Notes: generated from the letters alone by a model not told the origin. A DNA stretch of 64,000 nt from an uncultured Candidatus Saccharibacteria bacterium (GCA_964475855.1 CAYZAV010000001.1:143014-207013), one strand, 5' to 3'; positions 4,421-53,240 are shown, counted from the stretch's first letter. Numbers and translations are program-made.

Positions 4421-4681
4421 ATGGCAATCACCAAATCAGCGAAAAAAGCTATCCGCCAGAACAAGAGGCGCAGGGCCCACAATGTGGTTTATTTGAATGG
4501 AATAAAAAAGCTTCTCAAACAAGCTAAGGATTTTGTGGTGCAAAAGAAAAATAAAGAGGCAAAAGAACTGTTGCCAAAAGTGTACCAGATTTTAGACAAA
4601 GCAGCTAAAGTGGGAATTATCAAAAAAAATACCGCATCACGTAGGAAATCCAGATTAACCAAGTTAATAGAGCGATCCTAA
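4421..4681 (+). CDS. rpsT: 30S ribosomal protein S20
   Basis: MAITKSAKKAIRQNKRRRAHN... is the typical S20 N-terminus. The track start at 4382 (TTG) overlaps the promoter, so the ATG at 4421 is preferred. Confidence 0.9.
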   Translation: MAITKSAKKAIRQNKRRRAHNVVYLNGIKKLLKQAKDFVVQKKNKEAKELLPKVYQILDKAAKVGIIKKNTASRRKSRLTKLIERS

Positions 4682-4710
4682 TCTACGAATTACATCCGAA
4701 TGATCCGAAT

Positions 4711-4736
4711 AAAAAACCGCCTTCTGGCGGTTTTTT
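4711..4736. terminator. Bidirectional rho-independent terminator
   Basis: AAAAAACCGCC-TTCT-GGCGGTTTTTT, lying inside cassette A. Confidence 0.8.
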
Positions 4737-4744
4737 GATTATCC

Positions 4745-5122
4745 TTAATATGACTGCAGGGCGGGATTTAGCACTCTTTTCGGTTTTAAATACGTGCTCC
4801 TAAAATTGACTATTAATCCTAATTCTAAATTACTTCCCGAAAGATACCTTTGCATTTGGAAATAATCTTCTTTAGTAATAAATTTTTTTGCCTTCACATC
4901 AATGATAATCTTGTCATCAATAAGAAAATCAAACCTATTTCCCTTCACTGGTGCATCTGGAATTTCAAACTCTCTTTTATAGGTAATTTGTTTTTCTTTG
5001 AGCACCAATTCCAAAGCATCCGCATATTGCTTTTCACGCAAAAACCGGCCGTGCTTATTTTGGATATCGAAACAAATCCCTGTTAATTCATATGATAATT
5101 GTGCGTGCAATATTCGGGTCAT
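4745..5122 (-). CDS. GxxExxY-family protein (PD-(D/E)XK nuclease fold)
   Basis: 125 aa. GRFLREKQY, DFLIDD...IDVK and LGLIVNF match the family pattern as I recall it (TIGR04256-like). Confidence 0.7.
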   Translation of the reverse strand: MTRILHAQLSYELTGICFDIQNKHGRFLREKQYADALELVLKEKQITYKREFEIPDAPVKGNRFDFLIDDKIIIDVKAKKFITKEDYFQMQRYLSGSNLELGLIVNFRSTYLKPKRVLNPALQSY

Positions 5123-5149
5123 TCGGATGTAATTCGTAAATTAGGATCG

Positions 5150-6085
5150 CTAGATTTGCGACACCAGCAAATCTAAAGCTGTTTCTAATTCTATTTTGCC
5201 GGTTTTAATATCTGAATCAGTTTGGAATATTTTATGATATATTTTTTTTAATTCCTCAAAGCTGAACTGGTGGCACTGCTCATACGTTTTTTTGACCACA
5301 AACGGGTGTAGCCCGCTTTTTTTGACAATAGAGTCATACATCATCCGTTTCTCAGCCAGCTCTTTAACAATTAATAAATTTTTAAACTGGAAGGCAATCA
5401 TACTTAATAGGTACAACACGTTATCACCTTCGTCCAAATGTTTGCGCAGCAGCACCAGCGCCTGCTTTTTATTTTTGTGCGCCAGGGCGTCAATAGTTTT
5501 AAAAATGTCCAGCGCAATACTTGGCCGTACCATTAATTCCACATCTTCTTTTTTAATGGTTACGCCCTTTTTATAATCCGCCAGTTTTTTGATTTCCTGG
5601 TGCAAGCGCCAGCAATCTGGGCCAGTATAGGCCGTCAGCAAATCCAGTGCATCCAAGTTTATTTTTGCGTTCAAAACCTGCAATTCGCTCTGCGCCCAAA
5701 GTTTCAAGTTTTTAGGATCCAGAGACTTGAATTCCTGGCATTTGGCCATTTTAACAAGCTGTTTGAAAATTTTTAACCGCTGGTCAGGTTCTTCATCTTC
5801 ATAGACAACAGTAATATCTTGTAACTCCTGCAGTGTTTTCACCTCTTCTAAAAAATCTTCCTGGAACTGTTTATTGGCAAATAAATTTTTCAGCACCACC
5901 AGCTTTTTTTCAGCAAACATGCCCACCGCCCGGAAGTGTCCGAAAAACTCCGCAAAGTCCGCCTCAATCGCATCCACCCGCATCAAATTCAGCCCGCTTT
6001 TACGAACATTTTTATACTGCCCCACAATCTCATCCAGTTTTTGCTTCGATCTATAACTATCTTGTCCGAATAAAAAAATTATCAT
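5150..6085 (-). CDS. holA: DNA polymerase III delta subunit
   Basis: 311 aa. The MIIFLFGQDSYRSKQKLDEI... N-terminus and overall length are typical of HolA. Confidence 0.8.
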   Translation of the reverse strand: MIIFLFGQDSYRSKQKLDEIVGQYKNVRKSGLNLMRVDAIEADFAEFFGHFRAVGMFAEKKLVVLKNLFANKQFQEDFLEEVKTLQELQDITVVYEDEEPDQRLKIFKQLVKMAKCQEFKSLDPKNLKLWAQSELQVLNAKINLDALDLLTAYTGPDCWRLHQEIKKLADYKKGVTIKKEDVELMVRPSIALDIFKTIDALAHKNKKQALVLLRKHLDEGDNVLYLLSMIAFQFKNLLIVKELAEKRMMYDSIVKKSGLHPFVVKKTYEQCHQFSFEELKKIYHKIFQTDSDIKTGKIELETALDLLVSQI

Positions 6086-6093
6086 GGGTCGCA

Positions 6094-6530
6094 GTTATAA
6101 AGTTTGTAAAGTTATAAAGTTCATAAAGTCCTGTGCCATAATCTTATAAAGTTTTTATTAAGCCTGAAATCATCCGAGATATTTCCTTAGACAAAGAATT
6201 TATTTTTTCAAATTCTTCTCTTGAAACATAATTTAAGTCTACTGCAGTATATGACATTGATCTTACCTCTGAACAAGAACCTTTGGCAATATACAAAAAT
6301 CTAATAAACTCTTTATTTCCCATTCTTTCGAATCCTTCTGCGATATTATTACCAACACTAACTGTTGCCCTTTTGATTTGGTCACAAAAACTAAAATCTC
6401 TGTTATTTTTAAATAACGCATATATTAGTACTGCCAATTGCCTGCTTTTTTGCCAAGCAACAATATCTTCAAATTTTTCGAATTTCATTTTAGAACTTTA
6501 TAACTTTACAAACTTTATGAACTTTATAAC
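6094..6530. mobile_element. IR-bounded cassette B carrying a four-helix-bundle gene
   Basis: Flanks 6094-6130 and 6493-6530 are built from the same 8-11-nt units (GTTATAAAGTT, TGTAAAGTT, ATAAAGTT, CATAAAGT) in inverted orientation with permuted order. The cassette occupies the whole mutM-holA spacer. Confidence 0.6.
6144..6488 (-). CDS. Four-helix-bundle protein (23S rRNA intervening-sequence protein family)
   Basis: FEDIVAWQKS...NNIAEGFER...KGSCSEV matches the family pattern. Confidence 0.85.
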   Translation of the reverse strand: MKFEKFEDIVAWQKSRQLAVLIYALFKNNRDFSFCDQIKRATVSVGNNIAEGFERMGNKEFIRFLYIAKGSCSEVRSMSYTAVDLNYVSREEFEKINSLSKEISRMISGLIKTL

Positions 6531-7405
6531 TATAGCACCTGACATTTCGGGCAATAGAATGCGCTTCGGGCGGCGATTACTTTGCGCACAATAATCGCTT
6601 TACACCGGGAACAATTCTTGCCTTCCATTTGATATGCTTTTTTATGACCTTCGAAATTGCCCTTATTACCATCAACATCACGGTAATCAGAAAAGCTGTC
6701 TCCACCAAAATCTATGCCAGCGTTGAGTACTTTTTTAATATATTTATAGAGCAACTGTAATTCTTGCCTACTTAAATTTTCTGCCCGCTTTTCAGGGTGG
6801 AGACGCGCCCACCATAGCGCCTCGCTGGCATAAATATTACCAATGCCGGCAATCACAAATGGATCCATTATGACTTGCTTTATCTTTCCGCGTTTTTTGG
6901 AAACAATAGCCGCAAACTTTTCAAACGTGAAATTATTTTCCAGCGGTTCAGGCCCTATTTTCTTAAATTCCGGCGACACCAACAGTTCGTCCGTTTTCCA
7001 TAATTCAACCTTGGCAAATTTGCGCATATCAGAAAGCGCAATCATGTCGCCATTATCCAAAAAGAATATTATGTGCAAAAATCCATTTATCCGTTCGCGC
7101 AACGGGCCTTCGTCAGCCGACACCCATGTTCCATGCTTCATGTTCCATGTTCCATGAAGAAAGTGTCCCGTCATTTTCATATGCACTAACAAAGAATATC
7201 CGTCTGACAATTCAAATATGACATTTTTCGCCCGACGCCAAACGCGGATAATTTTCTTGCCCTTCAATTCTTTTTTAAACTGCGTAAACGGCCGCGGCCG
7301 TTTCACCATCTTTTCCCAATCGCACCACACATCAACAAAGGCCCGGTTAAGGACCTTTGCTTGTAACCCATTGACGGTGGTTTGTACTTCAGGTAGTTCC
7401 GGCAT
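6530..7405 (-). CDS. mutM: Formamidopyrimidine-DNA glycosylase
   Basis: MPELPEV N-terminus (catalytic Pro2) and a C-terminal zinc finger CSRC...CPKC. The track start at 7513 adds 36 spurious residues. Confidence 0.9.
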   Translation of the reverse strand: MPELPEVQTTVNGLQAKVLNRAFVDVWCDWEKMVKRPRPFTQFKKELKGKKIIRVWRRAKNVIFELSDGYSLLVHMKMTGHFLHGTWNMKHGTWVSADEGPLRERINGFLHIIFFLDNGDMIALSDMRKFAKVELWKTDELLVSPEFKKIGPEPLENNFTFEKFAAIVSKKRGKIKQVIMDPFVIAGIGNIYASEALWWARLHPEKRAENLSRQELQLLYKYIKKVLNAGIDFGGDSFSDYRDVDGNKGNFEGHKKAYQMEGKNCSRCKAIIVRKVIAARSAFYCPKCQVL

Positions 7406-14898: not shown

Positions 14899-16092
14899 AT
14901 GAAAAAAGCATTTATTATTATTGTCGCCATTATTGCCACTGGGTGTTTTAGTCCGTTTGTCAGTGCCGCTAACCCTTCCGATGTGGTTATCAATGAAATC
15001 GCCTGGATGGGAACGGCCGACTCCGCCAATGACGAGTGGCTGGAGTTAAAAAATAGTACCAATGAAGTCATAAAATTGGACAGTTGGCTACTTAAAACTA
15101 CGGACGGGAAAATGAAATTATATTTAACCGGCCAAATTGCGCCCCATGGCTTTTATCTGCTTGAGCGTACGGATGACAGTTCTGTTCCCGAAGTTAAAGC
15201 TGATTTTATATACACCGGCGCATTAAGTAATACCGGGCAATCACTGGAACTATACCAAAATTCAAGCACCCTGATTGACAGCATCAGCTTTTCCTCAAAG
15301 TGGCCGGCCGGAGACAACGCCACCAAAAAAACTATGGAAAAAGTTGGGAATGATTGGCAAACAAGCAAGGAACCCGGAGGAACTCCTGGAATGGAAAATC
15401 AGAAATCACAAGCACCAAATCCAAAACAAACCCAAAATACAAATGACCAAAAATTTAAAACTGAACCGGAAATAATAATATCGTATCCAGTAGGGATTAT
15501 TATCAATGAAGTATTACCCTCTCCGGAGGGTGCGGATGAAACTAATGAGTGGATTGAATTTAAAAACACCACTGCCACATCTATTAATATTTCCGGCTGG
15601 AAGTTACAAGATGCCGACGGCACCAAAACGGCATATGTGTTTCCTGAAAATTCAATCGTGTCAGCTAATGGATATTTGGTGGCAAAACGGCCCCAAACTA
15701 ATATTACGCTCAACAACGACCAGGATTCATTGCAATTAGTATTTCCCAACGGCATCATGGCTGATAGCATGTCCTATGGCAAAGCCAGTGCTAACCGATC
15801 ATACAATAAAACTGCTTCACAATGGCAATGGAGTAGTACTCAAACTCCAGGAAAAGCCAATGTAATTACCTTGGCAGCCGCCAAAAAAACATTGCCAAGC
15901 GCTAAAAAATCTGATATCAACAGTACTGTAGTAGCAAATACGTCCGTCGCGCCCAATCCATTTTTGGCCGAATTACCAAAAGAAACGGTAACCACCTCAA
16001 ACCCCTGGATGATATTTTTTATTGCTTTGGGGTTGGCTATTGTTTCAGCCGCCGCCATACTTTATATAAAATTATTTAGAAAAGCGAATTAA
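14899..16092 (+). CDS. Secreted protein with two lamin-tail domains and a C-terminal TM anchor
   Basis: Signal peptide, two copies of the I(I/V)NE(I/V)...NEW(L/I)E(L/F)KN motif, and a C-terminal hydrophobic helix followed by FRKAN. Confidence 0.7.
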   Translation: MKKAFIIIVAIIATGCFSPFVSAANPSDVVINEIAWMGTADSANDEWLELKNSTNEVIKLDSWLLKTTDGKMKLYLTGQIAPHGFYLLERTDDSSVPEVKADFIYTGALSNTGQSLELYQNSSTLIDSISFSSKWPAGDNATKKTMEKVGNDWQTSKEPGGTPGMENQKSQAPNPKQTQNTNDQKFKTEPEIIISYPVGIIINEVLPSPEGADETNEWIEFKNTTATSINISGWKLQDADGTKTAYVFPENSIVSANGYLVAKRPQTNITLNNDQDSLQLVFPNGIMADSMSYGKASANRSYNKTASQWQWSSTQTPGKANVITLAAAKKTLPSAKKSDINSTVVANTSVAPNPFLAELPKETVTTSNPWMIFFIALGLAIVSAAAILYIKLFRKAN

Positions 16093-16199
16093 GGTATCCC
16101 GCGAAAAAATAAGGTATCCAGCGGAAATCAGGCCGCAAGGTATACGATATAATTAAGCCTGATTTCCGAGGTGATTTTATTCGCCTCGCTCATAAAATC

Positions 16200-17505: not shown

Positions 17506-17569
17506 AGCGTCTAGCGGATAGCGTCTAGGGTCTAGTAAAAACTAAACCCTAAACCCTGAACGCTAAACC
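17506..17569 (+). repeat. Oligo-repeat hairpin (GCGTCTAG / CTAAACC units)
   Basis: 17521-17535 pairs with the 17548-17569 region at about 12/15 positions. Confidence 0.45.
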
Positions 17570-24375: not shown

Positions 24376-24840
24376 ATGACCAATGAAACCGACATCGAAA
24401 AAATAACAGCCATAGTTAAGGAATTTTTAGAAAAAATGACTATCCCTGTCCTTACTGTACAGGTGAACACAACCACTGAAGATGCCGCGGACATTGAAAT
24501 TACCATGGATGAAGCCCATTTTTTGATCGGCCAAAACGGCCAGACACTAGTAGATTTACAGCGAATTTTCAGGATGCTGGCCAATAAAGCATTTGGACAC
24601 ACTATTCATTTAGCCCTCGACATTAACGATTATAGCCGTAAAAAAAAGGATTACTTGAAAAATCTGGCCAAAAATGTGGCCAACGAGGTGTTTTTAACCC
24701 GTCAGAAAAAAATCTTGCCACCCATGTCCGCCTATGAACGGCGTATTATTCACGCCGAACTGGCCGGCCGCCAGGATATTATCTCTGAAAGTCAGGGCGA
24801 GGGCCTTGACCGGCGCGTGGTGGTCAGTCCGGTTATTTAG
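24376..24840 (+). CDS. jag: Jag/KhpB-like RNA-binding protein (KH + R3H)
   Basis: C-terminal R3H motif YERRIIHAELAG, and position after yidC. Confidence 0.75.
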   Translation: MTNETDIEKITAIVKEFLEKMTIPVLTVQVNTTTEDAADIEITMDEAHFLIGQNGQTLVDLQRIFRMLANKAFGHTIHLALDINDYSRKKKDYLKNLAKNVANEVFLTRQKKILPPMSAYERRIIHAELAGRQDIISESQGEGLDRRVVVSPVI

Positions 24841-26396
24841 TTTCCCGCAAAGGGCACAATATAGAGCCGGTAGAAATTCCGGTTGCTTTGCAATAAATTA
24901 ATACTTTTTACATTGGTAATTGGTTTTGTAAAAACATCACATCGCTTATCGGTACCGGTATCCCAGTTCTTGGCGTACAGGATAACATAGTAAGCATCCC
25001 TGCTAAACGTAATCCTCTGCAAACAGTCTCCAATACTCCTGCAATCATTAGCTAAATTATTTTGATTATATATTTCATATGGATCTGTTTTCATTAAATC
25101 AAGATTAAGGTTTGATGATTGTGTCAGGTTGCTTGGCCAATGATACTCTCCATTGATGGTAAAATCACTAGAATCAATATTTTTTCTATAGTTTTTGCTT
25201 TGAAGCGTAATCCCACGCAAACTACTAAGGTTTTGCGTTTCCACGTTTAAGATATAGGCCGAAGCGGCTATGTATGGTGCAGCAATAGTAGATTGCACAT
25301 ATAGTGGATTGGCGTTGTCCTCGGCAATTTTAATGCAACTACTATAACCTGCCGTAGTTTGCATAACTGGCGCCGTACATTCGCCACCTTCCCCATAGAT
25401 GGCATTACTTCCTATACTTAATACCACCCCATATTTTTGTTGTAATCCCCTGCCGCTTAAAATTTTCATGGATCGGGCCTGCTGTGGATAGGCCGGTCCT
25501 TTTCGCGCGTCAAATGGTTTAATAGCCCCGTTTGACCGTTGTGCATATGAGCTGATGCCAGTGCAATTATCTGTTAAGTAAAAATATACTCCGGGATTTT
25601 CATAATCCCAGATAAATGAAGCAACATTGGTAACATCAATAGTGTTGGCATTGGCCGGAGTCAATATGCCGTTTCCAGCGATACTGGTGGCAATTATGGG
25701 TTCAGTACCACCTGGAGTTGGGGCGCTACATGGGATTTTAATGGTAGTTACGTCCGGTAACCCATTTCCATTGCCATCAGTAATATCTCGGTCTATTTCC
25801 CATTCCGTATAGTTATATATCCAAACCAACAGTGTTTTTCCGGGGTCAGTGGGAGTGGTAGTGCATTTATAGAATAATTTTGAATCGGTCTCCCATCCAG
25901 TGTAGGAAGTCAACTCTTCTTCAACATCCGGTACAGCATTCTTTGCCTCATAATAAATATAGTCGCCAGTATAGTCATCTACTTCATTATCGCTGATATA
26001 ATACACTCCCGGCTGCACTGTTTCGGGAGTGGTTCCTGGAGTTATTAGTTCTGTGTTGATGGTCCGTAAAATAATAAACGAAGTCATTAAAAGGGCAATT
26101 CCCAATATTGATCCTAGTATTTGTTCGCGGGCGGCGCTGATGGTGGATGGGTTTCCGGCCGCCAAAAGAATTTTCAGGCCTGAAATGACCATAGAAAACA
26201 CTGCTATTAATCCCGCTGCCACCACCATAAACATGAAGAAATAGTTGATGTAATCAATAAAAGAGCTACTGCCGTCAATGGTTGGCGCCCCGGGAATAGG
26301 AATATAATTCACCTCCAGTGCGAAAGCGGTGCTGGCTTGGAGTAGCAAGAAAAGTGCAGTAGTGACTATGAAGGTAATTCTCTGTTTTGTTGGCAT
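24837..26396 (-). CDS. T4SS pilin-like (VirB2/TrbC-type hairpin) domain fused to a 400-aa Cys-containing extracellular domain
   Basis: Signal peptide ending AFA-LE, then two hydrophobic helices joined by AAGNPSTISAAREQILGSILG. The C-terminal region has 8 cysteines and no recognised family. Last gene of the T4SS-like operon. Confidence 0.5.
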   Translation of the reverse strand: MPTKQRITFIVTTALFLLLQASTAFALEVNYIPIPGAPTIDGSSSFIDYINYFFMFMVVAAGLIAVFSMVISGLKILLAAGNPSTISAAREQILGSILGIALLMTSFIILRTINTELITPGTTPETVQPGVYYISDNEVDDYTGDYIYYEAKNAVPDVEEELTSYTGWETDSKLFYKCTTTPTDPGKTLLVWIYNYTEWEIDRDITDGNGNGLPDVTTIKIPCSAPTPGGTEPIIATSIAGNGILTPANANTIDVTNVASFIWDYENPGVYFYLTDNCTGISSYAQRSNGAIKPFDARKGPAYPQQARSMKILSGRGLQQKYGVVLSIGSNAIYGEGGECTAPVMQTTAGYSSCIKIAEDNANPLYVQSTIAAPYIAASAYILNVETQNLSSLRGITLQSKNYRKNIDSSDFTINGEYHWPSNLTQSSNLNLDLMKTDPYEIYNQNNLANDCRSIGDCLQRITFSRDAYYVILYAKNWDTGTDKRCDVFTKPITNVKSINLLQSNRNFYRLYIVPFAGN

Positions 26397-26561
26397 ATAT
26401 TTATTACTTTGAAGTTTGGAGCTGGAAGTTAGGAGCTAGAATAGAATTTGGAATATTGAATTTAGGGTTCGTATTTTCTTTTTCCTGTGCTCCACATCAG
26501 CTTATCAGGGTTAATCTGGAAACTGGTGCGGCGTTGCGGATGAAGTACTTCCCTAGTTGAC

Positions 26562-26705
26562 TCAAGGAAGTATTCGCAATACATAATCCTCCGTTAACTC
26601 CCCTGGGAGGATTATGTATTGCGAATACTTCCGACCTATCTTATGCCGTTCTTGCCAAACATGAAGATCAGTAAATTTTGTAATTTTTCCAGTTGCAATA
26701 TTCAT
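26562..26705 (-). pseudogene. Four-helix-bundle protein remnant (47 codons)
   Basis: MNIATGKITKFTDLHVWQERHK... matches the family N-terminus (compare FEDIVAWQKS at 6144..6488), then loses similarity and stops. Confidence 0.5.
26566..26632. repeat. Perfect 27-bp inverted repeat with a 13-nt loop
   Basis: GGAAGTATTCGCAATACATAATCCTCC at 26566-26592 is the reverse complement of 26606-26632. Confidence 0.85.
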
Positions 26706-26735
26706 AATTCTATATTCTATTCCAGCTCCCAACTC

Positions 26736-28550
26736 CTAACTTCCATCTTCCGTAGCATTGCTTTGTTTTAACTTTTTCCGAGCTTCGCGGATTTTTTCCA
26801 CTTCGCCGGGGGCGGTGGTGATGATCTGGTCTTCTGTGTAACTGGCTTTAACACTCATAAATACATGTTTTTTACCGGCGAAAAATAACCCTTCGCCTAC
26901 CGAAGCTTCCAGGAGTAAATTCTTTTCTTGTTCAGTCAGATTAAACGTTTTTTCTAGGATTTCTACGGCCGCCGGTGATTGTTTAAGTAATAACTGCAGC
27001 GAAGAGTTGGTAATAATAGCCTTGCCATAGGAAGACTTCATAAAATCTTCAATGTCTTGGGTGATAGTGGTAACTCCCAACCAATACTTGCGTCCGCGTT
27101 TTACTAGGCCGAATAGGAATGAGGCGCCGTCTTCGGTTTGCATCAGCCACCAGGCTTCGTCCACTACTAGAATACGTTTTTTGGCCTTACTACGTACAAT
27201 ATTCCAAATATATCGCATAACAATAAAGAGGGCAATCGGTTTTAGTGTCTCTTCCATATCGCGGATGCCAAACACAATAAGCTGTTTATCAATGACGATG
27301 TTAGACTTTTGGTTGAAAAATCCGGAAAAACTGCCTTCGGTGAATTTTTTCAAGCGGCGGGCCAAGGATTCGGCTCCGGTCATATTTTCCAACACCTGTC
27401 CGAAATCAGCCATAATAGGCACGTTTTCCTGCCAGGTAGCCGGGTCGGATGTCGGGGTGATGTCGCGGATGGCATACGTTTCACTGATGGCTTGGTCTAA
27501 AATACTATCTTCTTCCGCTGTCAGTCCGCCCATCATAATGCGTAGCAATCCAACTAGGTTGATAACGTTGGAACGTAACACGTCTTCGGGATTATCATCG
27601 GGTCCGGGCACCGGCAAATCAAACGGGTTGACGTGGTGCTCGGATGTCAAAGAAATTTTAAAGAAATTACCCCCTACCCCATCAGCCAAAAATTCATATT
27701 CATTTTCCGGGTCAATAATAATGACATCAATGCCCCACATCAGGTAACGCAGGATTTCAAGCTTGATGGCGTAGGATTTCCCGGAGCCGGACTTTGCAAA
27801 CACTACCATGTTGGCGTTTTCCAAAGTAAAGCGGTCAAAGAGCACTAGGGAATTATTGTGGCCGTTAACGCCGTATAAAATGCCTTCGTTACTGCTTAAA
27901 TCAAAAGAAATAAAAGGAAAGGTGGTGCTTAATGGTTCGGTATTCATGGGCACATGAATATCCACCAAGTCCATGCCATAGGGGTTTGAAGAAATAAACC
28001 CTTCACGCTGTTTAAAGAGCGCCGGTTTTATGTAAATCAAGCGGGATTCAAAAATAGACCGCAGCGAACTTTCCACTTCCCGCATTTTTTCGGCGTTATT
28101 TTCATAAATGGTGATATATAACCCGAACCGGAACATTTTTTCCTGTGCCGTCACAATTTTGTCGCGCAGCGTTTCAATATCCTGGTAACCCGTTTCCAGG
28201 GCCGGGTCACGGATTAAGCCTTTTTCTTGGCGTTCCAATAATTCCGAAGCCACCTGCGTCACTTTGGACCGCAGTTTTTTCAAAATGACTTCATTGTTGA
28301 CCGGGTGGATGAAAAAACAGATATCCATGGGGACATTCAAATTAATGGCAGGGGAAAGCCAGCCGGTATTTAAATAGCGCGGATAAGAAAAAATAAAAAA
28401 TGATTTGACGAATTTTTCGCCAAGGTTAATGTGGTCCTGGGCAATGCCAATATATGGCGGCGCAATAATATCCTTAATATCAAGCGCTTCGCTGCCATGT
28501 TCGGTCAAATTATCCAAGTCTTCTTTTTTCTTAAAAAAAGGAATTTTCAT
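26736..28550 (-). CDS. virB4: VirB4/TrbE-family type IV secretion ATPase
   Basis: Walker A AKSGSGKS, Walker B ILVVDEAW, and overall Gram-positive-type VirB4 layout. Confidence 0.8.
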   Translation of the reverse strand: MKIPFFKKKEDLDNLTEHGSEALDIKDIIAPPYIGIAQDHINLGEKFVKSFFIFSYPRYLNTGWLSPAINLNVPMDICFFIHPVNNEVILKKLRSKVTQVASELLERQEKGLIRDPALETGYQDIETLRDKIVTAQEKMFRFGLYITIYENNAEKMREVESSLRSIFESRLIYIKPALFKQREGFISSNPYGMDLVDIHVPMNTEPLSTTFPFISFDLSSNEGILYGVNGHNNSLVLFDRFTLENANMVVFAKSGSGKSYAIKLEILRYLMWGIDVIIIDPENEYEFLADGVGGNFFKISLTSEHHVNPFDLPVPGPDDNPEDVLRSNVINLVGLLRIMMGGLTAEEDSILDQAISETYAIRDITPTSDPATWQENVPIMADFGQVLENMTGAESLARRLKKFTEGSFSGFFNQKSNIVIDKQLIVFGIRDMEETLKPIALFIVMRYIWNIVRSKAKKRILVVDEAWWLMQTEDGASFLFGLVKRGRKYWLGVTTITQDIEDFMKSSYGKAIITNSSLQLLLKQSPAAVEILEKTFNLTEQEKNLLLEASVGEGLFFAGKKHVFMSVKASYTEDQIITTAPGEVEKIREARKKLKQSNATEDGS

Positions 28551-28559
28551 GAGTAAAAT

Positions 28560-29231: not shown

Positions 29232-29236
29232 ATGTT

Positions 29237-30121: not shown

Positions 30122-30142
30122 AAAATTTATTCAATAAATTTT

Positions 30143-30224
30143 CGCGGAATAATGCGGAATTTTACGCGGAACTAAGCGGAATTTTTCGTTTTATTCCGTG
30201 TGAATTTCCGTGTCATTCTGCGCG
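30143..30224. repeat. Cargo-less oligo-repeat hairpin (GCGGAAT units)
   Basis: Four direct GCGGAA(T/C) units followed by the inverted units ATTCCGTG, TTTCCGTG and ATTCTGCGCG. Confidence 0.55.
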
Positions 30225-33542: not shown

Positions 33543-34378
33543 AGATTTACTATAATCTCGCCGTAACTGCTTGTCAAATTTTTCCAATCCTGCAGGCTAA
33601 GCGTTTCTGCACGGCGTTTGGCATCAATATTATTTTTCAAAAGCCAAGCACTAATAGCTTCTTTATCTTTTTTAAGGGCTTTAGAGAGGTTTCCTGCTAA
33701 TTGCTTGCGCGGTGCTGAAAAACCGGCTTTAACTAGAGTGAAGAATATTTCAGGGTCAATTGTCGATTTTTCCTTGTGCGGGGTGATGGAAATAATAGCC
33801 GAGTCCACGTTGGGTGCCGGCCAGAAGCAATTTTTGGAAACGTAGGAAATAACTTTGGGAGTGGCGTAAAACTGTACCGAAAGGGCCAGAATACTCATGT
33901 CTGGCGGCTTGGCGCAAATACGCTTTGCCACTTCTTTTTGAACCATCAACACCATAATAGTTGGTTGGTGTTTTTCCTCCAGAAATTTTCTGATGATGGG
34001 CGAGGTGATATAGTACGGGATGTTGGCGACTAACTTATAATTTGAAATTTGAAATTTGAAATTTGAAATTTCGAGCGCGTTGCCCTGGACGACTTCTACA
34101 TTGTTAAAGCCTGCTAGTGTTTCTTGTAAAATTTCTACCATGGCGCGGTCTTTTTCTATGGCAATGACATTGCCCGCCTTTTCTGCCAATGCCCTGGTAA
34201 GAGTGCCAATGCCCGGACCAATTTCTAAAACTGTATCCTGGCTGGAAAGCTCTGCCGCCGCAATAATTTTTTCTAAAATCCGTCCGTCAATCAAAAAATT
34301 CTGGCCAAGCCGTTTGGATGGCGCGGCAGCATGTTTTGCTAATAATTCCTTGATTACCGAGGGGGAGATAATGTCCAT
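33539..34378 (-). CDS. rsmA: 16S rRNA (adenine1518/1519-N6)-dimethyltransferase
   Basis: LGQNFLID, EIGPGIGTLT, ANIPYYITSPI. Confidence 0.9.
   Translation of the reverse strand: MDIISPSVIKELLAKHAAAPSKRLGQNFLIDGRILEKIIAAAELSSQDTVLEIGPGIGTLTRALAEKAGNVIAIEKDRAMVEILQETLAGFNNVEVVQGNALEISNFKFQISNYKLVANIPYYITSPIIRKFLEEKHQPTIMVLMVQKEVAKRICAKPPDMSILALSVQFYATPKVISYVSKNCFWPAPNVDSAIISITPHKEKSTIDPEIFFTLVKAGFSAPRKQLAGNLSKALKKDKEAISAWLLKNNIDAKRRAETLSLQDWKNLTSSYGEIIVNL
34039..34074. repeat. Tandem AATTTGAA octamers (4.5 units) inside the rsmA coding sequence
   Basis: Encodes the in-frame NFKFQISN of ...EISNFKFQISNYKLVANIPY. It uses the same 12-mer AATTTGAAATTT that occurs twice in the cassette C arm. Confidence 0.8.
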
Positions 34379-35599: not shown

Positions 35600-35612
35600 T
35601 TGTGTAGGGCGC

Positions 35613-35645
35613 AAAAAAAACTCCGGAAGCACCGGAGTTTTTTTG
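35613..35645. terminator. Bidirectional terminator
   Basis: A8-CTCCGG-AAGCA-CCGGAG-T7. Confidence 0.8.
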
Positions 35646-35663
35646 CCTTACTGGGAGAACGGG

Positions 35664-35978
35664 TTACTCTGTAGCTTTATTGGCTTTTGCCATCAGATAA
35701 GTTGCTATTACATCGGCGGTACTAACTGGTAAGGTTGAAAAGATGCCTTCAAGAAAAACATCTAAGCCGCTTATTAAAAATATGTTGCTACGCTTAAACC
35801 CTTTGAACCATTTATATGCAAAAAATGCTCCTGCAAATGGCCAGCTGAAAATCAGCCCTATATGCGGTATTATAGAAAAAATATCGCAGAGAATAGCAAT
35901 GATAAGCCATATAAAAAAGGCTAAAAGTCCAAATGTTTCCGGGGCGGGCTGGGCTATTTCTTCTTGTTCGGTTTGCAT
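35664..35978 (-). CDS. Small hypothetical membrane protein
   Basis: 104 aa, three predicted hydrophobic helices. Confidence 0.5.
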   Translation of the reverse strand: MQTEQEEIAQPAPETFGLLAFFIWLIIAILCDIFSIIPHIGLIFSWPFAGAFFAYKWFKGFKRSNIFLISGLDVFLEGIFSTLPVSTADVIATYLMAKANKATE

Positions 35979-35983
35979 ATTTT

Positions 35984-38521: not shown

Positions 38522-38526
38522 ACTAC

Positions 38527-38595
38527 TAGTAATCAGTAACAGGTAATCAGTAATTAGTAAATTCTTTTTACCAGTTACTCGCTACCAGTTACTTT
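38527..38595. repeat. Oligo-repeat hairpin (CAGTAAC / GGTAA units) filling the pnp to downstream-gene spacer
   Basis: AGTAACAGGTAATCAGTAA pairs imperfectly with TTACCAGTTACTCGCTACCAGTTACT. Confidence 0.4.
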
Positions 38596-40722: not shown

Positions 40723-40822
40723 AGCGATCCGAATAACCCGAATCTTCATCCGAATAACCCGAATAATCCTGCCGCCCAGCGGATTCGGAACATTCGGATG
40801 CTATCCGTAAATTAGGATCGCT
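40723..40822. repeat. Cargo-less hairpin with the same termini as cassette A
   Basis: Starts AGCGATCC and ends GGATCGCT. The reverse complement of the right arm is AGCGATCCTAATTTACGgatagCATCCGAATG, against cassette A AGCGATCCTAATTTACGaattaCATCCGAATG. Confidence 0.7.
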
Positions 40823-40827: not shown

Positions 40828-41328
40828 TTATTTTTTTAACAAAAACTTTTCATTCCCGTCCAGATCAATAAACTCGTCTGCCACTTCAATTAATTTTCCT
40901 GAAGTGGTTTTGCCAAACGCCAATATTTCCACGCGCTTGCCCTGGTTTTTTAAGTATTCTACTAGTGGAATAAAGTCGCCATCGCCAGAACAAAGTACAA
41001 TAACATCTAAACCGGGCGATGTACGGATAGCATCAATAACAATACCCACGTCCCAATCAGCTTTTTTGGCGCCGCCATAAAATTCCTGCAAATCGCGTAC
41101 CCGGGTTTCAATGCCTAGCTTGCTTAATGCATCAAAAAACGGCTTTTCTTCGCCGGTTTTTGTGCGCACCACGTATCCAAACGCCCGGATGAATTTACGT
41201 CCCGCCACCGCGGCCTTGAGTACTTCAGCAAAATTAACCTTTGACTGGTACAAATTCCGCGCCGAATAATACAAATTCTGCACATCAATCAGGACTTCGA
41301 CCCTTTGTTCTTTTGATTTAGTTAGCAT
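40828..41328 (-). CDS. NYN-domain (LabA-like) protein
   Basis: LIDVQNLYYSARN...VLCSGDGDFIPLVEYLKNQGKRVEILAF. Confidence 0.7.
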   Translation of the reverse strand: MLTKSKEQRVEVLIDVQNLYYSARNLYQSKVNFAEVLKAAVAGRKFIRAFGYVVRTKTGEEKPFFDALSKLGIETRVRDLQEFYGGAKKADWDVGIVIDAIRTSPGLDVIVLCSGDGDFIPLVEYLKNQGKRVEILAFGKTTSGKLIEVADEFIDLDGNEKFLLKK

Positions 41329-41331
41329 ACA

Positions 41332-41429
41332 ATAGTTTTTAGTTGATAGTTATTAGTTTTGGTTTTGCAGTTTCTAGTTTTAACTGTTAACAAAGTAACT
41401 AAAACTAATTACCAATAACTATTAACTAT
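41332..41429. repeat. Oligo-repeat hairpin, TAGTT family
   Basis: The left half TAGTTTTTAGTTGATAGTTATTAGTTTTGGTTTTG is inverted in the right half. The same sequence family occurs at 53139-53240. Confidence 0.55.
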
Positions 41430-41692
41430 TTTTTCAGGCCGATCTTTTTAATGACATCCTTGTAGCGTGCTTCGTCTTCCTTCATTAAATAGGCCAATAA
41501 TTTCTTCCTTTTTACTACCATGCGCAATAGTCCGCGCTTAGAGTGCAAATCTTTTGGGTGGTCTTTTAAATGCAAAATCAGGGCATCCATTTCTTCTGAA
41601 AGCAGCCCAATTTGCACATCGGCAGAACCGGTGTCTTTTTCGTTAATGGCGTGCGCTTTGACAATCTTTACCTTCTTCTCTTTTTTTAACAT
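41426..41692 (-). CDS. rpsO: 30S ribosomal protein S15
   Basis: TGSADVQIGLLSEEMDALILHLKDHPKDLHSKRGLL. Confidence 0.9.
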   Translation of the reverse strand: MLKKEKKVKIVKAHAINEKDTGSADVQIGLLSEEMDALILHLKDHPKDLHSKRGLLRMVVKRKKLLAYLMKEDEARYKDVIKKIGLKK

Positions 41693-42604: not shown

Positions 42605-44059
42605 ATGGTCATTCCCAAAGAAGTTAAAATTATACTGGAAAAACTGAAAAGCGCAGGCTTTGAGGCCTACATCGTCGGCGGATGCGTGCGCGATTTTTTA
42701 TTGGGGCACGAACCAAAAGACTGGGATGTGACCACTAATGCCAAGCCTGAAGAAATTCAAAAGGTGTTTCCCGACAGTTTTTACGAGAATACGTTTTTAA
42801 CGGTGACGGTCAAGATGCCTGGAATGGAGGTAGAAGTAACTACTTATCGATCTGAAGCCAAATATTCTGACAAGCGCCATCCGGATGCGGTGGAATACGC
42901 GAAGACGTTGGAGGAGGATTTAAGCCGGCGGGATTTTACCGTCAATGCAATGGCGATAGATCATGAAGCATGGAACATGAAACATGGAACAGGGGTGATC
43001 GACCCGTTTGGTGGCCAAGAGGATTTAAAGAAAAAAATTATCAGGACGGTGGGAAATGCCAATGATCGTTTTGGGGAAGATGCGTTGCGTATGTTGCGGG
43101 CGGTGCGGTTTGCGGCAGTGCTTGATTTTACGATAGAAGAAAAAACGGCTGAAGCGATAAAAAAGAACAGCCTGTGGATTGATGCCGTTTCAAAGGAGCG
43201 CATCAGGGATGAGTTTGTGAAAATGGTTATGTCGCTCAGGGCAGCTGACGGTGTTGAGTTGCTGCGGGAATTTGGTTTGCTGAAAATTATTATCCCGGAA
43301 TTACAAGAAAATGTAGGGGTAGGACAAAATAAGCATCATATTTATGATTGCTATGAGCATGCCTTAAAGGCGCTGGAGTATACGGCTAAGAAAAAATTTA
43401 GCTTGCACGTGCGTCTGGCCGCCTTGTTACACGACGTTGGAAAGCCGCGGGTGAAAATGGGAGAAGGCAAAGAATCAACGTTTTATAACCACGAAATGAT
43501 TGGGGCTCGCCTGGCCTTCCAAATTTTGCAGCGCCTGAAATTTTCCAATAATGATGTTAATGCGGTGGTCAATTTGGTGCGCCACCATATGTTTTACTAT
43601 AATGTGGATGAAGTGACGGAATCTTCCGTGCGCCGGCTGGTTAAAAAAGTGGGCCCTGAAAATATGGAGGCGCTTTTACAGGTGCGTGAAGCGGATCGGA
43701 TTGGCAGTGGTGTGCCAAAGGCAGAGCCCTATAAGCTGCGCCACTTAAAATATATCATTGAAAAAGTTTCCAAGGACCCGATTTCGGTCAAAATGTTAGC
43801 GATAGATGGCAAAGACGTGATGGATGTGCTGGGTATTGCGCCAGGGCCAAAGATAGGACAAATTTTGGACGCGCTATTAGGACATGTGCTTGATGATCCA
43901 TCTAAAAACACCGCCGAATTTTTGAAGAGTGAAATTAAGGTTCTGGGCGCGCTTAGTGAAAAAGAATTACAAAGCCTGGCCGAAAAAAGCAAGGAAGATA
44001 CATTTGGCGCACAGTCAGTTGAAGACGAAAAAGTGAAAAGCAAGTATTGGGTGAAGTAA
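42605..44059 (+). CDS. cca: CCA-adding enzyme (tRNA nucleotidyltransferase with HD domain)
   Basis: VGGCVRDFLLG...DWDVTT, RRDFTVNA, and an HD region LLHDVGKP. Confidence 0.85.
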   Translation: MVIPKEVKIILEKLKSAGFEAYIVGGCVRDFLLGHEPKDWDVTTNAKPEEIQKVFPDSFYENTFLTVTVKMPGMEVEVTTYRSEAKYSDKRHPDAVEYAKTLEEDLSRRDFTVNAMAIDHEAWNMKHGTGVIDPFGGQEDLKKKIIRTVGNANDRFGEDALRMLRAVRFAAVLDFTIEEKTAEAIKKNSLWIDAVSKERIRDEFVKMVMSLRAADGVELLREFGLLKIIIPELQENVGVGQNKHHIYDCYEHALKALEYTAKKKFSLHVRLAALLHDVGKPRVKMGEGKESTFYNHEMIGARLAFQILQRLKFSNNDVNAVVNLVRHHMFYYNVDEVTESSVRRLVKKVGPENMEALLQVREADRIGSGVPKAEPYKLRHLKYIIEKVSKDPISVKMLAIDGKDVMDVLGIAPGPKIGQILDALLGHVLDDPSKNTAEFLKSEIKVLGALSEKELQSLAEKSKEDTFGAQSVEDEKVKSKYWVK

Positions 44060-47429: not shown

Positions 47430-47842
47430 ACCAGAAAATTATTCAATATGGGTCAGTCGCAGTTATTATCGTTGCTGTTTTGATTTCAGGATATATCATG
47501 TTAAATCCGAAATCCGAAGCACGAAATCCGAATACGAGTGGTTTGGCTCCAATAGTTGATGGAAAACAAGAAGTTAAAATGACTGTGCTCGCCGTAGACT
47601 ACTCCCCTCGCACTTTTAAGGTAAAAGCAGGCGTGCCAGTAAAATGGGAAATCACTTCCTCGGGTCAAGCTGGATGTGCCAGCGGAGCCGTATATATCAA
47701 TGGCTTAGTAGAAAGTCCCATTTACTTAAATCCAGAGCAGGGACAAGTTAAAGTGGTAGAATTTACGCCGCAAACACCAGGAACATATAAATTTAATTGC
47801 AGTATGAATATGGCGCGCGGAACTATAGAAGTTATTAACTAA
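47426..47842 (+). CDS. Membrane-anchored cupredoxin-like protein
   Basis: N-terminal TM segment, GCASG, and C-terminal FNCSMNMARG ligand-like motifs. Confidence 0.55.
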   Translation: MNQKIIQYGSVAVIIVAVLISGYIMLNPKSEARNPNTSGLAPIVDGKQEVKMTVLAVDYSPRTFKVKAGVPVKWEITSSGQAGCASGAVYINGLVESPIYLNPEQGQVKVVEFTPQTPGTYKFNCSMNMARGTIEVIN

Positions 47843-50449: not shown

Positions 50450-50498
50450 AAAGAGATGTCTGAACCTTGAAAACTGAACTCTGTCTTTGGAGATTTTG

Positions 50499-52304: not shown

Positions 52305-52314
52305 ATTACCCATA

Positions 52315-52347
52315 CTCCGCTATTATCATGGCGGAGCTTTTATTTTG
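52315..52347 (+). terminator. Rho-independent terminator
   Basis: CTCCGC-loop-GCGGAG followed by CTTTTATTTT. Confidence 0.55.
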
Positions 52348-52359
52348 AGGGACTATATA

Positions 52360-52387
52360 TTGACGGAATGCTAATATGTAGTAGTAT
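52360..52387 (+). promoter_or_regulatory. Promoter TTGACG-16-TAGTAT
   Basis: Hexamers at 52360-52365 and 52382-52387. Confidence 0.45.
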
Positions 52388-52437
52388 TAAATTAATAAGG
52401 GAATGTTTCCCTTTGCACCTACACAAGGAGATCGAAT

Positions 52438-52980
52438 ATGTTCTGGTTCATCGTCTTTGCGCTGATGGTATTGCAACAGGTTGTCAATATGTGGCGGAAA
52501 GGAATCTTTTACCGCGCGGAGGTTGTTTTGCTGGGTATCTCCGCCTTGCTATGCGCATTGATATTGGCTAGTGTCACGGCTTTCTCAGTGGGTGCTCTGG
52601 TTGGTGCCCAAGAAAAGCAATGGGTTTTGGAAGAAACCGAAGAAATCATCAAGTTGGTCAGCTTGCGCGACCAACAAGGAGGGGCCGCCGGACGCTTTAT
52701 GCTTGGCACCGGTACTATCGGCAACGCTGATTATTATTACTTCTACAAAGAAGTTGGTGACGGCTATCAAGCCGACAAGGTGCGCGTGGGCAACAACGCG
52801 ACCATCTTCGAACGAAAGTCAGAGGCCGAAAAACAGCCGGGCAGCGAGTTGAAAATCCGTAGGATTACGTTTAAGTTGAAGTATTCTTCTTGGTTTTACT
52901 TCTCCTTCCCGCCCAATTCCACCGTAGAATACCAGTTCTTCATTCCTCAAGGAAGCTTAAAGAAAAGCTTCAGCCTGTAG
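52438..52980 (+). CDS. Hypothetical membrane protein (180 aa)
   Basis: Strong RBS AAGGAG 7 nt upstream, two N-terminal TM helices; no family recognised. Confidence 0.6.
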   Translation: MFWFIVFALMVLQQVVNMWRKGIFYRAEVVLLGISALLCALILASVTAFSVGALVGAQEKQWVLEETEEIIKLVSLRDQQGGAAGRFMLGTGTIGNADYYYFYKEVGDGYQADKVRVGNNATIFERKSEAEKQPGSELKIRRITFKLKYSSWFYFSFPPNSTVEYQFFIPQGSLKKSFSL

Positions 52981-52998
52981 TAAGGCAAATAGTGTTAA

Positions 52999-53030
52999 GG
53001 GCCTGGCTTTACGCCACGCCCCCTTTTTTT
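52999..53030 (+). terminator. Rho-independent terminator
   Basis: GGGCCTGGC-TTTAC-GCCACGCCC (8/9 paired) followed by CCTTTTTTT. Confidence 0.65.
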
Positions 53031-53098
53031 ACCCAAAATTTGACAGTGGGACTGTTGTTTGTTAAGCTGTAAGTAACTTATCTTGATGACTAAACGAT

Positions 53099-53126
53099 GT
53101 CCGTCTGAAAACGGGCTTTCTTTTTT
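53099..53126 (+). terminator. Weak terminator-like hairpin in the nusA leader (attenuator candidate)
   Basis: 6-bp stem GTCCGT/ACGGGC with one G-U pair, followed by an interrupted T-run TTTCTTTTTT. Confidence 0.4.
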
Positions 53127-53138
53127 ATAAATTTAAAA

Positions 53139-53240
53139 ATAGTTTATAGTTATTAGTTCATAGTTTTAGTTAACTAGTTACTAGTTAGCAAAACTAATGA
53201 CTAAAAAACCAAAACTAATAACTAAAAACTAAAGACTAAT
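53139..53240. repeat. Oligo-repeat hairpin, TAGTT family, abutting the nusA ATG
   Basis: The reverse complement of the right half contains TAGTTTTTAGTTATTAGTTTTGGTTTT, near-identical to 41335-41367. Confidence 0.55.

Follow-up and report, generated by a model that had tools for sequence, protein, structure and literature searches.

Cassettes of about 0.45 kb are wedged between housekeeping genes in the window, the whole 64,000-nt stretch of Candidatus Saccharibacteria DNA analyzed here. Each has one tiny gene and, on both sides, inverted arrays of 7–9-base repeats. What are these units, and which part of them disperses? We put the probability at about 0.6 that they belong to a family of minute selfish cassettes (about 0.35–0.5 kb) with a wide distribution and that the 23S rRNA intervening sequences (IVSs) with an S23p ORF are elements of the same kind. 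Such a family of IVS-type selfish cassettes is apparently undescribed outside rRNA.

Four repeat-bounded units in the window

When the inverted repeats of the window (arms within 1.5 kb of each other) are ranked, the first four places go to the arms of four cassettes, A to D. They stand far above a background of 24–30 nt pairs at 70–76%, which confirms the inverted-repeat cassettes observed in a preliminary description of this DNA. The units measure 340–491 nt and their arms 31–51 nt. That description counted four gene-bearing cassettes; A, B and C are intact, and D is a decayed remnant.

Cassette A (4666–5156, minus strand) has arms with a CGAAT/CTAAT core at 4666–4711 and 5111–5156 (46 nt, 91% complementary). 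Its gene (4745–5122) encodes a GxxExxY/PDDEXK_3 protein (PF13366/TIGR04256, E = 2e-20). Cassette B (6093–6531, minus strand) has arms of ATAAAGTT-type units at 6093–6132 and 6492–6531 (31–40 nt, 78–94% complementary) and a four-helix-bundle gene at 6144–6488 (PF05635/TIGR02436, E = 9e-35). The product matches 2GSC and 2RLD, both structures of pentameric four-helix bundles, and has a weak match to the phage Avd family (E = 7e-4). Cassette C (29234–29717, minus strand) has arms of AATTTGA/AATTTAC heptamers at 29234–29277 and 29674–29717 (44 nt, 98% complementary); its four-helix-bundle gene (29301–29666) is of the same family as that of B (E = 3e-14). Cassette D (26411–26750, minus strand) keeps its arms, at 26411–26461 and 26700–26750 (51 nt, 76% complementary), around a decayed interior. 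What remains there is an ORF of 56 aa, weakly similar over its first 18 residues to the N-terminus of the bundle profile, and a perfect 27-nt palindrome at 26566–26632. A tblastn search of the window found no additional intact cargo copy.

All four cassettes lie between protein-coding genes, with housekeeping or secretion genes as neighbors, and none is inserted in a 23S or 16S rRNA helix; an Rfam scan of the window returned two tRNAs only. At its outer ends, A overlaps the stop codon of holA and the final codons of rpsT; B fits between the stop codon of mutM (6530) and the start codon of holA (6085). C lies between PrgI-like and TraC-like genes of a type IV secretion locus, and D between VirB4-like and pilin-like genes. 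The abutment on start and stop codons described earlier holds, at distances of 0–15 nt rather than 0–10 nt. Co-orientation with the upstream gene, another of the original observations, is seen in 4/4 cassettes and at 72 of 77 related loci (93.5%, against a background of 73.5%). ORFs flank the cassette at every related locus checked.

The interior of cassette A also holds a resident bidirectional terminator (4710–4737), the sole intrinsic-terminator match among the arms, hairpins and cassettes checked. Simple insertion of a unit leaves its enclosure unaccounted for, which counts against an insertion model.

Arm motifs and selection on the arms

We compared 86 related cargo loci from other Patescibacteria with 550 control genes; a gene passed if the inverted-repeat score of its flanks reached 30 or more. 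Cargo genes of relatives do have inverted-repeat flanks: 73% of them pass, against 3–4% of controls (Mann–Whitney P = 1e-30). Arms are present at 30 of 44 GxxExxY loci, drawn from many CPR phyla and Bacteroidetes MAGs; three bundle genes in one genome (L076) have none. Outside CPR, five of six bundle genes from plasmids of cyanobacteria and Riemerella (Bacteroidota) are accompanied by inverted heptamer arrays, and the sixth is without arrays. The median distance between an arm end and the end of the neighboring ORF is 4 nt.

The arms are arrays of 7–9-nt units with a core motif set by cargo lineage: AAAGT for B-type bundles, AATTTGA/AATTTAC for C-type bundles and CGAAT/CTAAT for GxxExxY (A-type) genes. 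Units are spaced at 7 nt in C-type, 7–9 nt in B-type and 8–9 nt in A-type arms. Motif density was counted as occurrences per 100 nt upstream, with a background of 0.1–0.25. For AAAGT, CKAAT and AATTTRM, respectively, it is 3.5, 0.07 and 0.1 in B-type arms, 0.29, 2.6 and 0.29 in A-type arms, and 0, 0 and 4.4 in C-type arms, an enrichment of the cognate motif of at least 15-fold. The arrays mostly point inward (257:15 upstream, 290:19 downstream). Each motif is conserved between phyla and at insertion sites that have no relation to one another, and its tie to cargo lineage holds in more than 120 cassettes from unrelated genomes and contexts.

Could the repeats have arisen by chance or from low sequence complexity, or be intrinsic terminators of the ordinary kind? 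The A+T richness and internal repetition of the arms do raise the number of alternative alignment registers. The control comparison nevertheless refutes a chance or artefactual origin, and both the rank of the arms in the window and the motif enrichment argue against it. A short G+C-rich stem with a T run behind it, the form of an intrinsic terminator, is absent from all arms and cargo-less hairpins. We give this explanation practically no chance.

Paired arms of a cassette evolve together: complementarity is 39 within and 28 between cassettes for B-type arms (P = 1e-6), and 41.5 within and 19 between for A-type arms (P = 2e-9). Such covariation would also suit arms selected for a stem in the mRNA, which would loop out the cargo, make RNase III sites and so punctuate the operon. 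When the sense transcripts of cassettes A, B and C are folded, the minimum-free-energy structures have closing helices of 35–41 bp (z = −9.6, −2.8 and −5.9), and an RNA role draws further support from the folding of cargo-less hairpins (below), the high rate of co-orientation with the upstream gene and the RNase III cleavage of the equivalent Coxiella IVS stem.

The mismatches between arms speak against selection for an RNA stem. On the sense strand, G:U-compatible mismatches equal the A:C type (71 vs 62 and 33 vs 31), with no G:U bias or excess in the total (104 vs 93). The G/T alternation in the CGAAT/CTAAT core produces G:A or T:C oppositions, unit spacing (7, 8 or 9 nt) is unequal between arms and within arrays, and arm sequence is kept per cargo lineage across phyla beyond pairing. 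In cassette A, transcription meets the intrinsic terminator before the distal arm, which would thus be missing from most transcripts. From the lack of G:U bias and the placement of this terminator, selection on the arms looks DNA- or protein-level rather than RNA-stem-level. An RNA stem as the object of selection seems rather unlikely.

Occupancy of insertion sites and cargo-less derivatives

The preliminary description proposed that IVS-like, inverted-repeat-bounded units are dispersed in intergenic junctions. This is supported, and occupancy varies among relatives. Empty and filled versions of orthologous sites are seen at two junctions. A cassette occupies mutM|holA in the window and in L007, L009 and L010; in L005, where mutM and holA overlap, the site is empty, and in L004 and L006 it is taken by other small genes. 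At holA|rpsT, the window and L010 have a cassette, and L006, L007 and L009 have an empty site. A MAG with an empty holA|rpsT junction has an A-like cassette at comM|M23 (82% nucleotide identity), and the homology spans the arms and stops exactly at their GCGAC...GTCGC outer ends. None of 80 B-like loci is at a mutM|holA junction, and C-like cassettes are found at atpA|atpG, at PrgI|TraC and between giant surface protein genes. Insertion contexts include ATP synthase, type IV secretion, cas and DNA-repair operons as well as surface-protein genes. Closely similar cassettes (55–83% protein identity, same arms) recur in dozens of unrelated junctions, and junctions of type IV secretion operons hold different cassette types in different lineages.

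Some observations would suit immobile host modules, in which a nucleic-acid-binding regulator has operator arrays flanking its own gene and patchiness reflects gene loss. The mutM|holA copy is retained in several Staskawiczbacteria, and its divergence (69–77% among cassette copies, 65–68% for holA) is about equal to that of the hosts, which fits long vertical inheritance and perhaps even a domesticated role. No pair of copies from different loci reached 90% identity, so that any recent movement is conjectural. Nor is there a target-site duplication: across the outer ends, the mean length of the longest direct repeat is 3.53 nt, and shuffled pairs give 3.58 nt. Immobility is nevertheless improbable in view of the dozens of junctions with functionally unlinked neighbors, the different cassette types found at one junction according to lineage, and the existence of decayed copies and cargo-less derivatives. 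No recognized transposase or integrase was found; every cargo protein belongs to PF05635 or PF13366.

The window also has derivatives without cargo, and its tandem-repeat output is dominated by period-7 arrays. Six cargo-less hairpins had been listed, of which five fold strongly (z from −4 to −6). One of the five, at 40723–40822 between the PNPase and NYN-domain genes, has A-type (CCGAAT) arms 87–91% identical to those of cassette A and a small central GC hairpin. Two others, at 41331–41430 (TAGTTAT-type heptamers, adjoining the start of the NYN-domain gene) and 53140–53238 (TAGTT-type heptamers, directly upstream of nusA), form one family with 91% identity over 34 nt. The remaining two are at 38525–38593 (AGTAAyy heptamers, at the PNPase stop codon) and 17509–17568 ((GTCTAGN)4 / (NCTAAAC)4, downstream of ruvC). 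The sixth, at 30136–30207 upstream of the PrgI-like gene, folds weakly (z = −1.5) and is mostly a direct GCGGAAT array with one inverted unit; the array is also found in a relative (L144:32–71).

Single arms had also been reported in frame within three genes. The rsmA tract (34039–34074, minus strand) is (AATTTGA)x5, the arm motif of cassette C, in a variable loop; it is no insertion relative to a solved homologue. The other two are insertions. The mutM tract (7124–7156, minus strand) consists of CATGGAA-type heptamers coding HGTWNMKHGTW and is inserted compared with solved Fpg structures. The akin heptamer tract of cca (42962–42991, plus strand; 96% identity over 23 nt) is a 7-residue insertion (AWNMKHG) compared with solved CCA-adding enzymes. 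A fourth tract, absent from the earlier list, is (AAATCCG)x4.3 in a cupredoxin-like gene (47503–47532, plus strand).

Could the arms be host hairpins of STRR-like tandem repeats that were there before the cargo? Hairpins of this style without cargo occur here and in Geobacter metallireducens, where inverted array pairs lie between consecutive genes. The small genes alone would then be mobile, homing into the loops, and the cargo-less hairpins would be empty targets; a small GC hairpin is enclosed by cassette A and by 40723–40822 alike. Against this, a motif tied to cargo lineage is unexpected if arms are a property of the host site, and the homology of the relocated A-like cassette takes in the arms up to their outer ends. 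In addition, no empty hairpin of the AAAGT or AATTTGA type was seen in the window. Mobility of the gene alone is highly improbable.

We therefore prefer selfish cassettes in which the dispersing entity would be the whole unit, gene plus arms. A unit would consist of one small gene, for a four-helix-bundle (Avd-like, pentameric) or a GxxExxY PD-(D/E)XK-fold protein, and on each flank an inward-pointing array of about 3–6 tandem units of 7–9 nt with the core motif of its cargo lineage. It would settle exactly in intergenic junctions, mostly within operons and co-oriented with the upstream gene, and would thus be expressed by read-through. Long vertical inheritance would follow, with cargo-less hairpins and solo arrays as decay products. 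The arrays would be recognition sites on DNA for the cassette's own protein, so that both arms would track cargo lineage; binding of either cargo protein to them is putative, as is its part in movement. Transcription of both arms would yield a long RNA duplex as a by-product only, which RNase III would cut as in rRNA, uncoupling the cargo from its neighbors.

Relation to rRNA intervening sequences and heptamer arrays

The 23S rRNA IVS of Coxiella is 428–444 nt long, with a 28-bp terminal stem cut by RNase III, an S23p/PF05635 ORF, and tandem heptamers in the 5′ arm (GACAGAT x3–4) whose copy number varies from strain to strain (PMC4990558). The cassettes resemble the S23p IVSs of Coxiella burnetii and Leptospira in size (both about 0.43–0.5 kb; S23p-type rRNA IVSs as a class measure about 0.4–0.75 kb), in their complementary terminal arms (stems of about 28–45 bp), in the single PF05635 (23S_rRNA_IVP) ORF of B and C, in the tandem heptamers within an arm and in their sporadic distribution (PMC4990558). 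They differ in sitting between protein-coding genes rather than in helix 25 or 45 of 23S rRNA, in having a second cargo family, GxxExxY, in the same layout and in being accompanied by cargo-less and in-frame solo-array derivatives. RNase III cuts the IVSs, whereas excision of the cassettes is predicted by analogy.

The preliminary description had these elements spreading from rRNA into mRNA operons. This direction is unsupported: in a CPR survey of annotated rRNA-insertion ORFs, at most 22 of 455 were not homing endonucleases. Free-standing copies far outnumber those in rRNA, so derivation of rRNA IVSs from free-standing cassettes is at least as likely. The preliminary description also placed the GxxExxY family in rRNA IVSs, for which a search found no confirmation.

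Like MITEs and small IS, the cassettes have terminal inverted repeats, small size, dispersed copies and gene-less derivatives. Unlike them, they have no transposase, target-site duplication or near-identical multi-copy set, and their arms differ from one cassette lineage to another. Some transposons have arrayed subterminal repeats bound by their transposase, and the cassettes share such short subterminal motif arrays. Free-standing homing endonuclease genes, such as seg and mob of T-even phages, are likewise small nuclease-fold genes placed precisely between conserved genes and variably present among relatives, but they are not known to be bounded by inverted repeat arrays, and the four-helix-bundle cargo has no nuclease fold. 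The weak match of the B cargo recalls Avd of diversity-generating retroelements; unlike in those systems, neither a reverse transcriptase nor a pair of template and variable repeats was seen beside the cassettes, whose neighbors are housekeeping or secretion genes.

Cyanobacterial STRR sequences were reportedly described by Mazel in 1990 and Vioque in 1997. The cassette arrays resemble STRR and other heptamer arrays as tandem 7–9-nt units in intergenic spacers, some within genes, that abut start codons, but they come in inverted pairs around one small gene and match its lineage. TAACTGA repeats occur in intergenic DNA of Beggiatoaceae, Cyanobacteria and Bacteroidetes, and the 'global regulator sites' of G. 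metallireducens are opposite-strand tandem-repeat pairs between consecutive genes; the reports treat heptamer arrays as regulatory sites of unexplained origin and link no gene to them (PMC4679880, PMC2700814).

It is possible, though on balance doubtful, that PF05635 (Avd-like) and PF13366 proteins bind their own 7–9-nt arrays sequence-specifically and mobilize or maintain the 0.45-kb unit, and that such units are the common source of S23p IVSs and STRR-type arrays. If so, the cassettes would represent a novel class of minimal mobile elements that lack a canonical transposase, and S23p-type rRNA IVSs and heptamer arrays would share an origin. The cassettes would also be the source of the arrays in Cyanobacteria, Bacteroidota, Beggiatoaceae, Geobacter and Patescibacteria and of the in-frame tracts in housekeeping proteins. 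Cassettes of this kind may be where the heptamer repeat arrays of bacteria come from.

The cassettes of the window

The central observation of the preliminary description, that small genes bounded by inverted repeats lie within protein-coding operons, is confirmed and generalises. These cassettes have the architecture of S23p-type intervening sequences (IVSs, found in rRNA genes), but are located in protein-coding operons. Relatives of its holA place the host in Candidatus Staskawiczbacteria (Patescibacteria/CPR). At least two cargo families are in use, and the arms are lineage-specific arrays.

When inverted-repeat pairs no more than 1.5 kb apart were ranked across the whole window, cassettes C (29234-29717), A (4666-5156), D (26411-26750) and B (6093-6531) took the top four places, which establishes all four as real units. 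Their arms are 40-51 nt long with 76-98% complementarity, compared to 24-30 nt and 70-76% for other pairs. Cassette A encodes a GxxExxY protein (4745-5122, minus strand; PF13366/TIGR04256), and cassettes B (6144-6488) and C (29301-29666) each encode a four-helix-bundle protein (PF05635/TIGR02436); 2GSC and 2RLD, both pentameric structures, are further matches of the B protein. The earlier claim of one small gene per cassette thus holds for A, B and C but not for D, whose interior has a 56-aa ORF with only the first 18 residues resembling the start of the bundle profile. A tblastn search found no further intact cargo copy in the window. The decayed cassette D also contains a perfect 27-nt palindrome with a 13-nt loop (26566-26632), with no second copy in the window or any fetched locus. 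For the GxxExxY protein, structure prediction from the single sequence gave a poor model (pLDDT 55) and a PDB sequence search gave no match. The cassettes had no match in defence-system libraries.

As originally described, the arms lie close to neighboring genes, abutting or overlapping the adjacent stop and start codons (distance 0-15 nt), and all four units are oriented like the gene upstream.

Site occupancy and distribution in other genomes

Occupancy of orthologous junctions varies among relatives, giving the filled and empty sites expected in the preliminary description. Both cassettes (mutM/holA and holA/rpsT) are present in all contigs encoding an identical holA. Among related loci fetched from other genomes (L numbers), mutM/holA carries a B-type bundle gene with AAAGTT-type arms in the window, L007, L009 and L010; is empty in L005, where mutM and holA overlap by ATGA; and contains other genes instead in L004 and L006. 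The holA/rpsT junction carries a GxxExxY cassette with homologous arms in the window and L010, and only a terminator in L006, L007 and L009. L005 has a Bro-N-like gene and a 52-aa ORF at this site, and L004 has a gene-free gap of ~550 nt, with rpsT absent.

The same cassette also occurs at unrelated junctions. L113 has an A-like cassette between comM-like and M23 peptidase genes and comes from the same metagenome-assembled genome (MAG) as L007, whose holA/rpsT site is empty. It is 82% identical in nucleotide sequence to the holA-site cassette of L109, and its homology to holA-site cassettes is bounded exactly by GCGAC...GTCGC. At the corresponding window junction (35600-35983), a 104-aa ORF without any family match precedes a terminator-like hairpin. 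Conversely, one junction can house different cassettes: at PrgI/TraC, the window and L146 have a C-type bundle gene while L098 and L128 have a GxxExxY cassette, and TraC/VirB4 has a B-type bundle gene in L037 and a 9-nt spacer in the window. Variable occupancy, the same cassette at unrelated junctions and different cassettes at the same junction together lend good support to mobility on evolutionary time scales. The stronger notion of mobile selfish elements is borne out to that extent, but all-against-all cassette BLAST at ≥85% identity gave only same-locus or tandem pairs, with no near-identical dispersed copies as signs of very recent transposition. No target-site duplication was found, and the cassettes contain no transposase.

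A metagenome scan with B found 80 loci (55-66% protein identity), none at mutM/holA and 56 flanked on both sides by other genes. With A, a genome scan found 45 loci in many CPR phyla and also in three MAGs of Bacteroidetes (34-64% identity), with inverted-repeat arms at 30 of 44. The C-type query by itself returned >7,000 clusters (90% identity). We followed five C-like proteins (63-83% identical) back to their contigs, and all have AATTTGA/AATTTAC arms; their sites include atpA/atpG, the counterpart of the window's secretion locus and a position between giant surface protein genes. The host with the secretion-locus copy has a second one upstream of its PrgI-like gene. In the window, the secretion-like locus (24837-30121; PrgI-like, TraC-like, VirB4-like and pilin-like genes) houses two of the four cassettes. 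Type IV secretion-like loci might help cassettes spread, since homologous CPR loci house other cassette types.

To assess the layout across loci, we scored the two flanks of each gene against each other by Smith-Waterman, using other genes from the same loci as controls. Cargo genes in relatives keep their inverted-repeat flanks: 73% of 86 scored ≥30, compared to 3-4% of 550 controls (p 1e-30). In 72 of 77 cases the cargo shares the orientation of its upstream gene, compared to 73.5% for ordinary neighbors (about 4 standard deviations), and the median distance from arm end to neighboring ORF end is 4 nt over all loci.

Outside CPR, inverted heptamer arrays flank five of six plasmid bundle genes (from Nostoc, Anabaena, Pseudanabaena, Geminocystis and Riemerella). 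Two of these genes, in L092 and L094 (plasmids of Anabaena sp. 90 and Pseudanabaena), are housed in the cas6/cas4 interval of type I-D CRISPR loci, the Pseudanabaena copy between long arrays of (AAAAGCT)n and (AAAAGCC)n. Bundle genes inside cas loci have been noticed before (PMC3936711). Three clustered bundle genes at L076:1009-4240, two of them tandem duplicates (87% identical), have no flanking inverted repeats. No cassette within rRNA was present among the fetched loci, and the proposed direction of spread, from rRNA to mRNA operons, found no support.

Other small CPR genes are repeat-flanked (L027:11249-11788, L006:3630-4127, L031:5600-5980 and L054:16593-16874; PaaX_M/Cas2-like, DUF559 and GIY-YIG). 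The L006 gene occupies mutM/holA, where the window has cassette B. Two copies of a palindrome flank the PaaX_M-like and DUF559 genes, and a plain inverted repeat flanks the GIY-YIG gene. We kept these genes apart from the cassettes because their repeats are not tandem-unit arrays.

Arm motifs and their proposed recognition

Each cargo lineage has its own arm motif. Per 100 nt upstream of the cargo, B-type arms contain 3.5 AAAGT, 0.07 C(G/T)AAT and 0.1 AATTT(G/A)(A/C); A-type arms contain 0.29, 2.6 and 0.29, respectively; and C-type arms contain 0, 0 and 4.4. The background is ~0.25 (0.22 per 90 nt), 0.18 and 0.09. The arrays point inward (AAAGT upstream 257:15, ACTTT downstream 290:19). Arms typically have 4-6 units, spaced by 7 nt in C-type and 8-9 nt in A-type cassettes; B-type arrays mix spacings of 7, 8 and 9 nt. 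Between cassettes of the same lineage, arms align with a median score of 28-29, compared to 14 for random sequence, and arms match their own partners better still (B-type 39 versus 28, A-type 41.5 versus 19). We considered that cargo genes home into pre-existing hairpins and rejected this model on the ground that arm motifs go with the lineage of the cargo.

The preliminary description proposed that the arms act as an RNA stem that loops out the cargo and is processed by RNase III. When transcribed, both arms are predicted to close helices of 35-41 bp, and RNase III cuts the corresponding stem in the Coxiella IVS (PMC4990558). However, mismatches in the would-be sense transcript show no bias of the kind expected from RNA-level selection (G:U versus A:C, 71 versus 62 for bundle and 33 versus 31 for GxxExxY cassettes). 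The core-motif sequence is kept across hosts of different phyla, oppositions that do not pair arise where the CGAAT/CTAAT core alternates between G and T, and the two arms often differ in unit number and spacing. Cassette A also has a resident bidirectional terminator (4710-4737) between its cargo and distal arm, homologous to the terminator at the empty L006 site; judging from this sequence, most holA-cargo transcripts should end before reaching that arm. For these reasons, we argue that RNA pairing is not what is selected in the arms. Both arms carry the lineage-specific motif, as expected of protein sites, which suggests that these arms may serve as sites bound by the protein that the cassette itself encodes.

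Repeats without cargo, known systems and implications

Period-7 arrays are the dominant repeats of the window (Tandem Repeats Finder) and coincide with every arm, hairpin and in-frame tract. All six cargo-less hairpins listed in the preliminary description exist, and five fold far better than shuffled sequences (z -4 to -6), but 30136-30207 is for the most part a direct array. We rejected the idea that this array is left over from an additional C-type cassette, which L146 has at the same junction, because the motifs differ. None of the listed hairpins has intrinsic-terminator form, the sole real terminator being the one in cassette A. By arm cross-matching, hairpin 40723-40822 consists of A arms without cargo (87-91% identical), and hairpins 41331-41430 and 53140-53238 form one family. 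Hairpins 40723-40822 and 41331-41430, which differ from each other, stand on either side of an NYN-domain (RNase-like) gene at 40828-41328. Hairpin 63845-63949, upstream of gene 63290-63844 and at the edge of the window, has 36-nt arms (75% complementarity, z -5.4) not made of tandem heptamers. A 20-nt unit repeated 1.9 times (TAAGGTATCCAGCGAAAAAA) at 16090-16127, in the overlap of two ORFs, is unrelated to the heptamer arrays.

The in-frame tracts, previously read as single arms, fit that reading in part. The rsmA tract, (AATTTGA)x5, is the C-arm unit; relative to solved homologues, it lies in a variable loop and is not an insertion. The mutM (7124-7156) and cca (42962-42991) tracts are 96% identical over 23 nt and both encode WNMKHGT in otherwise unrelated genes, forming loop insertions of 11 and 7 residues, respectively, relative to solved homologues, but their motif is in no cassette arm of the window. 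An additional in-frame tract at 47503-47532 had been overlooked.

The closest known system is the Coxiella IVS, of 428-444 nt with a 28-bp terminal stem and an S23p ORF. Three to four GACAGAT heptamers lie between its Shine-Dalgarno sequence and start codon; strains differ in how many they carry, and the first repeat is where RNase III cuts (PMC4990558). Some CPR rRNA insertions encode 23S_rRNA_IVP, and 433 of 455 annotated CPR rRNA-insertion ORFs are homing endonucleases (bioRxiv 10.1101/2024.02.27.582315). Geobacter metallireducens has dozens of inverted tandem-repeat array pairs between consecutive genes, interpreted as global-regulator sites (PMC2700814), and TAACTGA heptamer arrays are common to Beggiatoaceae, Cyanobacteria and Bacteroidetes, with "no mechanism evident" (PMC4679880). 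The function of PDDEXK_3 is listed as unknown (PMC3424549). Our literature search found no description of free-standing repeat-armed GxxExxY or bundle cassettes and nothing linking such genes to cognate inverted arrays; its coverage was incomplete, with subscription papers mostly outside it, and a prior description is possible.

To our knowledge, the protein families PF05635 and PF13366, both very large, have no known function, and the origin and spread of rRNA intervening sequences have been unclear since about 1990. Both families would gain a testable function under the hypothesis that each protein recognises its cognate flanking array. This would tie together rRNA intervening sequences, intergenic heptamer arrays, which the papers describing them leave without a mechanism (PMC4679880, PMC2700814), and the small 'four helix bundle' and 'GxxExxY' genes scattered as interruptions of operons, cas operons among them (PMC3936711). 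Genome annotators could treat such units as insertions and not as operon members, and the in-frame arrays show that the repeats are able to add loops to essential proteins.
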